Shown here one piece after another: positions 3,273-24,800 of a stretch of DNA of 35,354 nt. Both the position numbers and the translations under genes were made by a program. Origin of the DNA: Escherichia coli (GTDB lineage: Bacteria > Pseudomonadota > Gammaproteobacteria > Enterobacterales > Enterobacteriaceae); NCBI RefSeq assembly GCF_003334355.1, contig NZ_QOWP01000035.1; one strand, 5' to 3'. The notes under the pieces are model-generated. The model saw nothing but the letters and a program-made list of their open reading frames with translations. It did not search any database and was not told the origin of the DNA. Positions within the stretch are counted from its first letter, which is position 1. Each line of letters begins with the position of its first letter.

Positions 3273-4421
3273 TTACACGTGAGCAACGGGTTTCGGCGTA
3301 TGACCGGCGTTGCGCAGCAGCATCAGCAAATAGATAAACGATACGCTGGCGATCATGATAAACAATAAATTATCGGAGAAATTCTGCATTAGCATAGCGG
3401 TAAATGACGGGCCAAGCAGACTTCCCACAGTATAGCTCAACAGTAAGGCCTGGTTCATCGCCACCAGTTGATGATGTTCAACTTTCTCGCAAGCCCATGC
3501 CATCGCCACCGGATATAGCGTAAAGCCAGCGGCACCGAGGATGAATAACGCTGGGGCCATCGCCGCCTGGCTAAGCATCGCGATACTGCCGAGAATGACG
3601 ACAAAGACCTGAACACGCAACACCAGCAGTCGACCAAACTTATCCGCCAGACGTCCAATCGGCCATTGTCCAAGGATACCCGCACTGACCAGTACCGCCA
3701 TCCAGAAACCAATGCTGGCATTGCTCACCCCTTTGTGATTGAGGTACAGCGGCATCAGGCCATATAGAGATCCCAGAACGATTCCTGAGATAATGCAGCC
3801 ATTCACGCCAAGCCGCGCCTGACGGAGTTTTAGCATTGACGTAATTGACGTCGAATCATGGTTTTCAGCCTGCTGATTCAGCACACGCGTAAACAACAGC
3901 GGTAAGATCCCTGCCAACGTCAAACCTGTAACCCACGGCAATACGGACATCAGCTCGGTTGAAACTTTGCTGACCAGTAACTGGCCTAAAAACGTTCCCA
4001 CGTAATAAACCATCATATACGCAGCAAGCAAACGCCCACGGTTACGTGACGTCCCACTGCACATCAGCGCGCTCTCAACAACCACCCAAATCATGGCACA
4101 GCCGACGCCCGCGACAAAACGCCAAGCCAACCAGCTCCAGAATCCAATCATCAGGCCAAGGCCGGCACAGCCAGCGGCAAAAATGAAGGAGGCCAGATAA
4201 TAGCTGCGGTTAAAGCCAATGCGCTTAATGACATACCCTGTCAGCAATGTACCGACAAGGTTGCCGGTAAAATAGGATGAGCTGACAACGCCTACCTGCC
4301 ATGTGGACATGTGTTCCTGGGCGAGCCAAAGCGGCACGAGTGTATTTAACACCGCAATCGCCAGAGTCAACAAAAGCAGGCCAGACAGCAAAAGCATGAC
4401 AGGCCGGGTATACGTGGACAT
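3273..4421 (-). CDS. ycaD: MFS transporter, 382 aa
   Basis: ORF track; 12-TM-like hydrophobic profile; ATG at 4421; sequence recognised as YcaD. Confidence 0.9.
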
Positions 4422-6888: not shown

Positions 6889-9333
6889 TTACACCTTTTC
6901 AACCTGAACAAGGTTTGTATGTGACGGATTCCCCTTAGCGAGAGGAGACGGACGTTGAGTGGTCAGTACGTTAATACAACCACCCTTATCGACACGTTTT
7001 GCATCCGGGTCATACCAGGCACCTTCACCCAGTGCGACTACACCCGGCATCATTCGTGGCGTCACTTTCGCCTCAATATGAACCTCACCACGATCGTTAA
7101 AGATCCTGACTTTATCGCCGTTGTGGATACCGCGTTTTTGGGCATCAAGCGGGTTGATCCACATTTCCTGACGGCAAGCCGCTTTCAGCACATCAACGTT
7201 GCCGTAAGTTGAGTGAACGCGAGATTTATAGTGGAAACCTGTAAGCTGCAGCGGATACTGTTTGTTCAGCGGATCCTGATAACTTTCAAAGCCCGGCGTG
7301 TAGATCGGCAGTGGATCGATCACATCGCCTTCAGGCAATTCCCAGGTAGCGGCAATGTCAGCCAGCGCCTGCGAATAAATCTCAATTTTGCCCGATGGCG
7401 TAGTCAGTGGGTTTGCCTGCGGATCTTCACGGAAGGCTTTATAAGCAACGTGATGCCCTTGTGGGTCGCGCTTTTTAAAGATCCCCTGCTTGCGGAACTC
7501 TTCAAACGTTGGCAGTTCAGGAATCGCTTCCCGCGACTGGGCATACAGATGCCGCATCCACTCTTCCTGGGTACGGCCTTCAGTAAACTGTTGCTCAACG
7601 CCAAGACGTTTTGCCAGTTCGCTGGTCATTTCATAGATGGTCTTACATTCAAAGCGCGGTTTAATCACCTGATCGTTGAAAATCACGTAAGACATATTCC
7701 CGCAGGATGCATCCAGCGCAAAGTCCATCTGTTCGGAAGCGGTGCAGTCAGGCAGCAGGATGTCAGCATATTTCGCCGATGAGGTCATGTGGCAGTCGAT
7801 AACCACAATCAGCTCGCACTTCTTATCATCCTGAAGGATTTCATGGGTACGGTTGATTTCAGAATGCTGGTTAATCAGGCAGTTACCGGCATAGTTCCAG
7901 ATCATTTTGATCGGCACATCCAGCTTATCTTTCCCGCGTACACCATCACGCAGCGCCGTCATTTCCGGGCCACGTTCAATGGCATCGGTCCACATAAACA
8001 TCGAAATGCTGGTCTGGATCGGGTTTTCCAAGGTCGGCATACGGACAAACGGTAAGCTGTATGAACCTTCACGCGCGCCGCTGTTGCCTCCGTTAATACC
8101 AACGTTACCGGTCAGAATCGCCAGCATCGAGATAGCACGGGTTGCGATTTCACCGTTAGCGTGACGCTGCGGGCCCCATCCCTGGCTGATAAACGCCGGT
8201 TTGGTACTACCGATTTCACGAGCCAATTTGATGATTTTGTCTGCCGGAACACCAGTGATTTGCGAGGCCCATTCCGGCGTTTTAGCCACGCCATCTGGCC
8301 CTTCACCCAGAATATAAGCTTTATAGTGGCCATTTTTCGGCGCACTGGCTGGCAGGGTTTTCTCATCGTAGCCAACGCAATATTTATCGAGGAATGCCTG
8401 ATCCACCAGGTTTTCAGTGATCATGACGTACGCCAGACCGTTAACCAGTGCGGCATCTGTTCCCGGACGAATAGGGATCCACTCATCTTCGCGCCCGGCA
8501 CCGGTGTCGGTATAGCGCGGATCGATGATGATCATGCGGGCATTAGATTTCTGGCGTGCCTGTTCAAGATAGTAAGTCACCCCACCGCCACTCATTCGCG
8601 TTTCGCCAGGGTTATTACCAAACAGCACTACCAGCTTACTGTTTTCGATATCCGACGGGCTGTTGCCATCTGCCCAGCCGCCGTAGGTATAGTTCAAACC
8701 TTCCGCAATTTGCGCGGAGGAGTAGTCGCCGTAATGGTTCAGATAGCCGCCGCAGCAGTTCATCAGCCGCGCGACCAGGGTATTTCCCGGCGGCCAGGAG
8801 CGGGTCATGGTGCCGCCCAGCGTACCGGTGCCATAGTTCAGATAGATAGACTCGTTGCCGTACTCTTTGATCAGGCGCTGCATATTGGTCGCGATGATGT
8901 CGTAGGCTTCTTCCCAGCTAATGCGCTCGAATTTGCCTTCACCGCGCGCCCCGACTCGTTTCATCGGATATTTCAGGCGGTCCGGATTGTAGACACGGCG
9001 ACGCATGGAACGCCCACGCAGGCAGGCGCGAACCTGGTGCAGGCCGTCGTAATTGTCATCGCCGGTATTGTCCGTTTCGACATATTTGATTTCACCGTCC
9101 ACGACGTGCATACGTAGCGGGCAACGACTACCACAGTTAACTGTACAGGCGCTCCAGATAACCTTTTCGTCTGATTTTGTTGGAATGGCGCTATCGACAG
9201 CGTGCGCAATCCGACTAAAAGGTAATGTTAATGCGCTGCTGGCCATTGCCAGGCCGCCGATCGCTGTCGTTTTTACCAAACCACGGCGACTCACCTCAGC
9301 AGCCAATACCGCATCAGGGATTTTCGTTTTCAT
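6889..9333 (-). CDS. dmsA: DMSO reductase catalytic molybdopterin subunit, 814 aa
   Basis: ORF track; twin-arginine signal (SRRGLVK) at N-terminus; molybdopterin oxidoreductase sequence; ATG at 9333. Confidence 0.95.
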   Translation of the reverse strand: MKTKIPDAVLAAEVSRRGLVKTTAIGGLAMASSALTLPFSRIAHAVDSAIPTKSDEKVIWSACTVNCGSRCPLRMHVVDGEIKYVETDNTGDDNYDGLHQVRACLRGRSMRRRVYNPDRLKYPMKRVGARGEGKFERISWEEAYDIIATNMQRLIKEYGNESIYLNYGTGTLGGTMTRSWPPGNTLVARLMNCCGGYLNHYGDYSSAQIAEGLNYTYGGWADGNSPSDIENSKLVVLFGNNPGETRMSGGGVTYYLEQARQKSNARMIIIDPRYTDTGAGREDEWIPIRPGTDAALVNGLAYVMITENLVDQAFLDKYCVGYDEKTLPASAPKNGHYKAYILGEGPDGVAKTPEWASQITGVPADKIIKLAREIGSTKPAFISQGWGPQRHANGEIATRAISMLAILTGNVGINGGNSGAREGSYSLPFVRMPTLENPIQTSISMFMWTDAIERGPEMTALRDGVRGKDKLDVPIKMIWNYAGNCLINQHSEINRTHEILQDDKKCELIVVIDCHMTSSAKYADILLPDCTASEQMDFALDASCGNMSYVIFNDQVIKPRFECKTIYEMTSELAKRLGVEQQFTEGRTQEEWMRHLYAQSREAIPELPTFEEFRKQGIFKKRDPQGHHVAYKAFREDPQANPLTTPSGKIEIYSQALADIAATWELPEGDVIDPLPIYTPGFESYQDPLNKQYPLQLTGFHYKSRVHSTYGNVDVLKAACRQEMWINPLDAQKRGIHNGDKVRIFNDRGEVHIEAKVTPRMMPGVVALGEGAWYDPDAKRVDKGGCINVLTTQRPSPLAKGNPSHTNLVQVEKV

Positions 9334-9503
9334 AATGGCTCACTCAAGCTTGCTCACGATTGATTCCAGTAACAAACCGTATTGTGTAATTATTTCTATA
9401 GCAGCTCGCTATATAGGCTTGTATACATCGAATAATTTGAAAATCAAAGAGATAGGTAGATTTTCACTCGAAAGTAGTATTACGTGTAAGTGAGGAGTAA
9501 TTA

Positions 9504-9517
9504 TTGTTCGGTATCAA
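9504..9517 (-). promoter_or_regulatory. FNR box of the dmsA promoter (TTGAT-N4-AACAA on minus strand)
   Basis: Plus strand ttgttcggtatcaa = minus TTGATaccgAACAA, close to the FNR consensus TTGAT-N4-ATCAA; about 170 bp upstream of dmsA ATG; dmsABC is a known FNR-activated anaerobic operon. Confidence 0.6.
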
Positions 9518-9525
9518 AGGGAGAC

Positions 9526-9551
9526 AAAAAAAGCGCCCGCAGGCGCTTTTT
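9526..9551 (-). terminator. Rho-independent terminator downstream of serS
   Basis: aagcgcc-cgca-ggcgctt hairpin flanked by A6 and T5; on the minus strand the hairpin is followed by a U-run, 21 bp after the serS stop. Confidence 0.75.
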
Positions 9552-9571
9552 AGATTCAGAAAAATTGGGTA

Positions 9572-10885
<1,314 letters not shown>

Positions 10886-24316: not shown

Positions 24317-24404
24317 GGTGAGGTGTCCGAGTGGCTGAAGGAGCACGCCTGGAAAGTGTGTATACGGCAACGTATCGGGGGTTCGAATCCCCCCCTCACC
24401 GCCA
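24317..24404 (+). tRNA. serW: tRNA-Ser (anticodon GGA), 88 nt, class II with long variable arm
   Basis: GGTGAGGTGTCCGAGTGGCTGAAGGAGCACGCCTGGAAAGTGTGTATACGGCAACGTATCGGGGGTTCGAATCCCCCCCTCACCGCCA: 7-bp acceptor stem, anticodon loop CTGGAAA, T-loop GGTTCGAATCC, encoded CCA. Confidence 0.95.
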
Positions 24405-24447: not shown

Positions 24448-24652
24448 CATTTTATCTGTCTGTACGGCAGTGAACATGGTGGGTGGAGTATGTTACCTGT
24501 GAATTTCTAAGCTGCCTGTACGGCAGTGAACGCCAACTTTCACAGCCTTTGCAAGATTGTTCCTTTCTAAGCTGCCTGTACGGCAGTGAACGTTCGCTGC
24601 AACCGCTAGCCAAGACGGTAGGTTTTTCTAAGCTGCCTGTACGGCAGTGAAC
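24448..24652 (-). CRISPR. Orphan type I-F CRISPR array: 4 repeats (one degenerate), 3 spacers, no adjacent cas genes
   Basis: Perfect 28-bp repeats at 24504-24531, 24564-24591, 24625-24652 (plus strand TTTCTAAGCTGCCTGTACGGCAGTGAAC; minus strand GTTCACTGCCGTACAGGCAGCTTAGAAA, the I-F repeat with CTGCC/GGCAG hairpin); degenerate terminal repeat 24448-24475 keeps the 3' 16 nt; spacers 28, 32 and 33 bp; repeat orientation puts the leader on the clpA side. Confidence 0.9.
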
Positions 24653-24800
24653 TCAAATACTACACGTTTAGCCCGTTGTTAATAAAGCAAAACCATCCCA
24701 TTCTCCTGCAGCACCCTTTTTTATCCTTACCTTCCAGCAGCACTAATTATCAACAACTTACCTTCACCTCCAAAAATAGGGTTTTCACCGTTCCACCCCA

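Follow-up and report, generated by a model that had tools for sequence, protein, structure and literature searches.

Results

The whole stretch of DNA that was analysed, referred to here as the window, comprises 35,354 nucleotides of the Escherichia coli contig NZ_QOWP01000035.1. The locus under study shows the gene order ftsK–lolA–rarA–serS–dmsABC–ycaC. The serS gene (9572..10864, minus strand, stop codon at 9574..9572) encodes a serine–tRNA ligase of 430 amino acids, as is evident from the list of open reading frames and from the RefSeq annotation of identical DNA. The dmsA gene, identified from the list of open reading frames and from the annotation, is located on the same strand (6889..9333) and encodes a protein of 814 amino acids with the Tat signal MKTKIPDAVLAAEVSRRGL... 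The two genes are separated by a spacer of 238 bp, which was found in every one of the 5426 complete E. coli genomes searched, with the neighboring genes annotated as serS and dmsA. The junction, the promoter and the leader in the window are identical to those of K-12 MG1655 with the exception of a single SNP at position 9405. The strain from which the window originates is apparently not a K-12 strain, and the records showing 100% identity include bovine and human isolates.

The serS gene is followed by a predicted intrinsic terminator (9526..9551, minus strand), which was recognized from the RNA folds of both strands and occupies the positions −82 to −57 relative to the dmsA start. In the fold of the minus strand, the terminator consists of a 10-bp stem (9551..9528, AAAAAGCGCC / GGCGCUUUUU) with five A-U pairs plus the GCGCC/GGCGC pairing, a UGCG loop and a run of seven U at 9532..9526. 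Its first base is located 20 nt past the stop codon of serS. A sequence-only reading of the window had placed a terminator hairpin at 9526–9551, and the fold reproduces it, with the stem at 9551..9528 and the end of the U-run at 9526. The hairpin is symmetric: the plus strand reads AAAAAAAGCGCCCGCAGGCGCUUUUU with five U, and on the basis of the folding model the structure could terminate transcription bidirectionally. The consensus terminator scan did not return the serS hairpin, which is regarded as a false negative given the RNA fold. The scan probably missed it due to the extension of the stem through the A/T runs, which consumes the T tract.

The end of the U-run is separated by 8 nt (9525..9518) from the sequence TTGATACCGAACAA (9517..9504, minus strand), which is the reverse complement of TTGTTCGGTATCAA at 9504–9517 of the plus strand. 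It agrees with the FNR consensus TTGAT-N4-ATCAA at nine of the ten defined positions. The left half-site matches the consensus completely (5/5), and the right half-site, AACAA instead of ATCAA, matches it at four of the five positions. From its sequence, its conservation and published ChIP data, this 14-mer is assigned as the FNR box of the dmsA promoter. It spans the positions −48 to −35 with the centre at −41.5, which is the class II position. The box lies 171–184 nt upstream of the dmsA ATG (9333), and its centre (9510.5) lies 177.5 nt upstream. The earlier reading had proposed an FNR box for the dmsABC promoter at 9504–9517, about 10 bp from the serS terminator and about 170 bp upstream of the dmsA start codon. 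All three statements agree with the measured distances, and the assignment of the box is supported by its 9/10 match, by cross-species conservation and by the published ChIP and −41.5 data. The N4 spacer of the box differs among Escherichia lineages (ACCG, ACCA or ATCA), while the half-sites are constant.

Downstream of the box, the −10 element TAATACT (9476..9482, minus strand) is near-invariant in an alignment of 22 genera. If its hexamer AATACT occupies the positions −12 to −7, the centre of the box, which is 34.5 nt away from the last base of the hexamer, comes to lie at −41.5. The box centre at −41.5 in turn places the +1 of the P1 transcript at about 9469 on the minus strand and gives dmsA a 5′ untranslated leader of 136 nt. 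This predicted start is consistent with the geometry of the −10 element, with the published −41.5 position and with the anaerobic sigma70 peak.

To what extent this arrangement is shared by other species was examined with a single scan of species-representative genomes, in which DmsA served as a query. The scan yielded 80 orthologous loci, ranging from Escherichia to Hafnia. In 75 of them serS is located immediately upstream on the same strand, and the 76 spacers compared are those of the window and of these 75 loci. Each of the 76 spacers contains a hairpin of the form GCGCC-N4/5-GGCGC-T6-9 followed by TTGAY-N4-NNCAA. The stem of the serS terminator is invariant across the 76 species and its loop is variable. 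The left half-site of the box reads TTGAT in 48 species and TTGAC in 28. At the right half-site, AACAA, GACAA, GGCAA, AGCAA or CGCAA is found, and none of the 76 has the consensus ATCAA. In 63 of the 76 species, the final T of ATACT follows the end of the box at a distance of exactly 28 nt. In the 22-genus alignment the interval between the box and TAATACT is free of gaps, and the conservation is confined to islands: the terminator stem without its loop, TTGA....CAA(T)AA, TAATACT (9482..9476), TATATA-N6-TATATA and the ribosome-binding region.

The T-run and the box are 7–11 nt apart in 66 of the 76 species, which, together with the 8 nt measured in the window, bears out the compact serS–dmsA junction proposed earlier. 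The gap is 39–41 nt in eight species (Cedecea, Dryocola and Buttiauxella), 58 nt in one species and 177 nt in another (Hafnia). In Mixta and in Pluralibacter gergoviae unrelated genes are located upstream of dmsA; the hairpin and serS are missing, and the box and the ATACT −10 element are retained. Since the promoter elements persist without the hairpin in Mixta and P. gergoviae, and since the gap extends to 39–177 nt in Cedecea, Buttiauxella and Hafnia, the hairpin is apparently dispensable for the promoter. Judged from these sequences, the abutment of the hairpin and the box is a conserved synteny, which is very widespread yet not obligatory.

The FNR motif by itself has no significance on the scale of the window. 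Allowing up to one mismatch, it occurs twice in the 35 kb, compared with 1.42 occurrences expected from shuffled sequence; the second match is located at 3468 within ycaD. These counts are what one would expect if the 14-mer were a chance sequence without a regulatory role. However, scaled to the 238-bp serS–dmsA spacer, the expectation falls to about 0.01 matches. Moreover, 76 species retain the box at a constant distance of 28 nt from the −10 element, and the FNR ChIP peaks of three studies lie over it. It is the position, the conservation and the published ChIP data that set the dmsA box well beyond chance, and a chance origin deserves practically no credence.

The published data were projected onto the window by means of the K-12 coordinates. 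In version 3 of the K-12 genome serS is located at 939,428–940,720 and dmsA starts at 940,959; the corresponding positions in version 2 are 938,651–939,943 and 940,182. The mapping from K-12 to the window was verified against the data of Kim 2012. The dmsABC operon is among those directly activated by FNR and has one motif, at −41.5 (Myers 2013). In the same study, all four peak callers reported the FNR ChIP-seq peak at 939,992, which had also been seen in earlier ChIP-chip, and the dmsA site obtained a PatSer ln p of −10.34, which ranks it roughly in the best quarter of some 200 FNR ChIP peaks. An Fnr peak at 939,760–940,277 is marked as "Activation, Known" by Federowicz 2014. In the window, the two estimates of the FNR peak (939,992 and 940,035) correspond to 9523 and 9480 and thus flank the centre of the box at 9510.5. 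The class II arrangement, with an FNR site at −41.5 ± 4, is found in 19 of the 23 promoters that FNR activates directly and whose transcription start is known. According to the sentence of Bearson 2002 that is quoted in PMC11363960, the −41.5 target is preferred by the dmsA promoter, as in other class II Fnr promoters.

The sigma70 ChIP-seq peak at 940,050 (version 2) rises from a signal of 30.8 under aerobic to 447.5 under anaerobic conditions (Myers 2013). It maps to position 9465 of the window, 4 bp off the predicted +1. The conserved −10 element and this anaerobic peak place the start 41–42 bp downstream of the box centre, as the sequence-only reading had anticipated with its figure of about 41 bp. 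The long dmsA leader that it had predicted also follows from the box at −41.5, which would set +1 at about 9469 and the leader at 136 nt. The ratio of aerobic to anaerobic dmsA mRNA is 0.018, and three transcriptome comparisons of the wild type with delta-fnr list dmsABC as "Activated" by FNR (Myers 2013, Table S8). The FNR dependence of dmsA, on which the earlier claim had been staked, is thus documented in published data, and the claim stands. In the comparison with the published architecture of the dmsA promoter, agreement was found on the −41.5 position, on FNR ChIP and on anaerobic activation. The aerobic transcription start profiling of Kim 2012 called no start in the dmsA promoter region on either strand. 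This is expected since the promoter is anaerobic, and it gives no positive support to the assignment. The starts which that study assigned to dmsA have two to three reads each and are located inside serS, and they were set aside as noise of the aerobic culture.

A different role of the box would follow if it served or repressed another sigma70-like promoter, TTGTCT-16 nt-AATAAT (9527..9500), which overlaps it. FNR would then work there by repression or competition. This promoter-like sequence is indeed the sole match of the promoter scan in the region 9200–9700. However, one match is found where 1.0 is expected in shuffled sequences, the −35 sequence TTGTCT is unconserved, other genera having TTTATGCC at this place, and the conservation of CAATAA is accounted for by an extended FNR site. 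Expression of dmsA and sigma70 occupancy rise, and do not fall, when FNR is active. We therefore consider such a role of the box exceedingly improbable and retain its assignment as the activating FNR site of dmsA P1.

Two heptamers resembling NarL sites (TACYYMT) were found near the box by pattern search. The first one, TACTCCT (9493..9499, minus strand), is located at −30 to −24, between the box and the −10 element, and the second one, TACCTAT (9452..9458, minus strand), at +12 to +18. Such heptamers are not enriched in the window as a whole, with 14 matches compared with 16.7 expected. In a sentence quoted in PMC11363960, NarL is stated to protect a large region of dmsA that spans the sites of FNR and RNA polymerase. 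As sequence matches, the two heptamers are consistent with this published footprint and constitute no independent evidence for it.

The leader (9334..9468, minus strand; 136 nt counting +1) was delimited from the predicted start and characterized by its fold and by the alignment. The RNA fold of the leader shows no unusual stability (z = −1.14). No riboswitch or other family, and no Moco riboswitch, was found when its sense strand was compared with Rfam. A ribosome-binding region, GTGAGCAA...AAGTGAG, is conserved at its 3′ end. Escherichia, Citrobacter, Salmonella and Intestinirhabdus carry approximately 36 extra nucleotides between the palindrome described below and the ribosome-binding site (about 9355–9400; alignment columns 185–223). 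Because of this insert, the leader measures 136 nt in Escherichia, Citrobacter and Salmonella and about 100 nt elsewhere. The insert contains TATA-rich repeats, which look like another half-site. Single-nucleotide variants among E. coli strains were observed in the dmsA regulatory region at 9484 (C/A, upstream of the −10 element), at 9447 (T/C, in the leader) and at 9405 (G/A/T, flanking the palindrome). An inverted repeat of about 10 bp (9427–9437 and 9500–9512) was also noticed, in which the flank of the right FNR half-site, CGAACAATAATT, pairs with AATTATTCG at +33 to +43.

The leader contains a palindrome at 9406..9431, which reads TCGATGTATAC-AAGCC-TATATAGCGA on the dmsA strand and TCGCTATATA-GGCTTG-TATACATCGA on the plus strand. 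It spans the positions +39 to +64 with the centre at +51.5, and each of the 22 aligned genera retains it. ModE recognizes a palindrome of the type CG-TATATA-N6-TATATA-CG. On the strength of this consensus, we take the sequence at 9406–9431 to be a putative ModE operator. The source cited for the control of dmsA by ModE is reportedly the work of McNicholas from 1998. Control of the dmsA operon by ModE and molybdate, and by FNR as well, is described in PMC12096835. The dmsA leader would be long because it holds this conserved ModE-type operator. A location around +51, downstream of the start, is unusual for a regulator that is reported to be necessary for expression.

The same region carries a conflicting database annotation. 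The plus strand at 9424..9558 matches the Rfam family RF02084, "STnc130", which is described as "Enterobacteria sRNA". The match is antisense to dmsA, and it runs from +46 of the leader across +1, the −10 element and the FNR box into the serS hairpin. Taken at face value, it would mean that the conserved block is an antisense sRNA gene (plus strand, 9424–9558) that starts in the TATATA palindrome and ends at the reversed hairpin, and that the FNR-like box is incidental or subordinate to the RNA. The match is full-length and, at 140.1 bits, far above the gathering score of 55. The hairpin is symmetric and, with five U on the plus strand, could serve as a terminator of STnc130. The fold of the plus strand is also somewhat more stable than that of shuffled sequences (z = −2.83).

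The origin of the family and its conservation pattern speak against an RNA gene. STnc130 was a class V candidate in the serS/dmsA spacer, antisense and predicted by Pfeiffer 2007 (Sittka 2008). In Salmonella, neither of the two cDNA libraries yielded a single read of it, and the Northern blot showed "no detectable transcript", under aerobic and SPI-inducing conditions only (Sittka 2008). It is listed merely as a "Putative sRNA" by Barquist 2013, and Kim 2012 detected no E. coli transcription start on either strand in the STnc130 region. The structure of the Rfam model comprises a 2-bp helix and the terminator and nothing more. RNAalifold, applied to the 76 antisense sequences, returned the terminator hairpin only, whose eight pairs are all invariant and show no covariation. 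The inverted repeat mentioned above dominates the fold of the plus strand, and the 10-bp long-range helix was discarded, as it is unsupported by the consensus fold of the 76 species. No plus-strand promoter for STnc130 was found in the consensus scan. The conservation takes the form of discrete islands corresponding to DNA sites, namely the box, the −10 element and the palindrome, and does not extend over the RNA as a whole. The conserved columns of the STnc130 model coincide with the elements of the dmsA promoter and with the serS terminator, and the FNR, sigma70 and expression data suffice to account for their conservation. An antisense sRNA gene in this place is therefore very unlikely. STnc130 is probably the dmsA promoter and the serS terminator read on the wrong strand, and we regard the match as a database label that does not argue for an RNA gene.

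It is conceivable, if unlikely, that the ModE-type palindrome, with one of its TATATA halves, doubles as the −10 element of a weak antisense promoter, which would be the one behind the prediction of STnc130. The transcript would cross +1, the −10 element and the FNR box of dmsA and stop at the hairpin, and molybdate-bound ModE would "activate" dmsA by silencing it. Were this antisense interference to take place, it would explain the absence of STnc130 from molybdate-replete cultures.

The terminator hairpin has one more role in the species. It coincides with a 22-bp phage attachment core, AAAGCGCCTGCGGGCGCTTTTT (9528..9549), which was defined by the comparison of attL and attR and is unoccupied in the window. 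The alignment of the serS–dmsA region breaks at 9549/9528 in 353 of the 5426 complete E. coli genomes. The core is common to both prophage junctions and to the empty site (attL, attR and the window; 5990–6022 in L002 and 6097–6124 in L003). A contiguous junction of integrase, core and box was found in 335 of the 5426 genomes (about 6%) and additionally in the type strain of E. albertii. In the strain Ecol_542, genes for a phage integrase, a repressor-like HTH protein and a Cox-family protein are located directly upstream of dmsA, next to attR. In the strain JNEC-KY203, the hok/gef, ogr, gpD, tail sheath, tube and tape-measure genes are located directly downstream of serS, on the attL side. One end with integrase and Cox and another with ogr, gpD and tail genes imply that the integrated element is a P2-like prophage. 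The integrase gene of the prophage is oriented toward the FNR box of dmsA. After integration, serS is still followed by a hairpin with five T, and upstream of dmsA there remain a hairpin and the FNR box with the 8 nt between them.

Like the attachment sites of other P2-like temperate phages (Peduoviridae), the serS–dmsA site has a tyrosine integrase with a Cox-type control region at one junction, ogr, gpD and tail genes at the other and a short core that is duplicated. It differs from them in its core, which is neither a tRNA gene nor coding sequence but an intrinsic terminator hairpin located 8 nt from a regulator site. No description of this prophage site was found in the searchable literature, in which the search terms are swamped by SERS spectroscopy and the DMSA chelator. 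The "phage" records that match the integrase were considered as independent attP sequences and were rejected, as they represent prophages excised by computation, with the dmsA promoter of the host still attached. The partial genome vB_EcoM-569R5 (ON470599.1, GenBank/INPHARED) reaches into host DNA at 1650–1823, where the FNR box, −10 element and leader of E. coli dmsA are found, and this record is therefore a prophage cut out together with a host flank.

Elsewhere in the window, a small orphan CRISPR array (24448–24657, minus strand) was observed between the tRNA-Ser gene serW (24317–24404) and clpA. It consists of three perfect 28-nt repeats of type I-F (Rfam CRISPR-DR4, 50 bits each) and one degenerate repeat with a spacing of 56–61 nt. 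The open reading frames flanking the array include no apparent I-F cas genes.

Discussion

The 14-mer at 9504–9517 is almost certainly the FNR operator, and the only one, of dmsA P1, a class II promoter that depends on sigma70. The sequence, the geometry, the conservation in 76 species and the identity with K-12 come from this analysis. The FNR occupancy, the −41.5 position, the sigma70 binding, the expression data and the control by NarL and ModE are taken from published papers. We infer where exactly +1 is located, that the terminator insulates the promoter and that the palindrome belongs to ModE. The FNR site of K-12 dmsA P1 is reportedly the subject of the papers of Eiglmeier from 1989, Lamberg & Kiley from 2000 and Bearson, Albrecht & Gunsalus from 2002. 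The operator in the window shares with this K-12 site, TTGATaccgAACAA, the locus, the sequence, the −41.5 position and the ChIP peak, and the sole SNP, at 9405, is located outside the box. The dmsA site, through which the oxygen sensor FNR turns on the DMSO reductase operon under anaerobiosis, is thus an already known textbook site that has long served as a model of class II activation, and its confirmation adds nothing new in itself.

We propose the following course of events at the promoter. Without oxygen, dimers of [4Fe-4S]-FNR would bind TTGATaccgAACAA, centred at −41.5 and overlapping the −35 region. The activating regions of FNR would then recruit RNA polymerase to the weak −10 element (T)AATACT. 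Transcription would start at about 9469 and give rise to an mRNA with a leader of 136 nt. In the DNA of this leader, the ModE-type operator, at about +51, precedes the ribosome-binding site and the start codon of dmsA. The serS terminator, ending at −57, would halt the constitutive serS transcript just ahead of the promoter, so that the expression of dmsABC would be set by FNR and not by read-through. The position of the terminator would also be the simplest reason for the approximately 55-fold lower level of dmsA in air. In the presence of nitrate, phosphorylated NarL would repress the promoter by covering the sites of FNR and the polymerase.

The dmsA promoter resembles other class II FNR promoters, such as those of narG, nirB, ydfZ and ynfE, in which a site for the FNR dimer is likewise centred at −41.5 ± 4. 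Co-regulation by NarL is shared with narG and nirB; however, NarL represses dmsA but activates narG. Unlike the other class II promoters, that of dmsA has an imperfect right half-site, a terminator directly upstream and a regulator site inside the leader. It is also conceivable, if unlikely, that the T-run of the terminator, at −63 to −57, is the docking DNA for the C-terminal domain of the polymerase alpha subunit upstream of FNR. If so, it could explain why the gap of 7–11 nt between the T-run and the box is so widely retained.

What goes beyond the textbook description of this promoter is the conflict with the Rfam annotation and the phage attachment core, and these alone. The case of STnc130 calls for caution among users who take Rfam matches as proof of sRNA genes. 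The attachment core shows that a P2-like phage uses a hairpin located 8 nt from the FNR box, and that, after integration, each side has a hairpin again and the dmsA promoter is undamaged. The geometry of hairpin, box and −10 element is herewith documented as constant throughout the Enterobacteriaceae, and the right half-site deviates from the consensus in all species examined.
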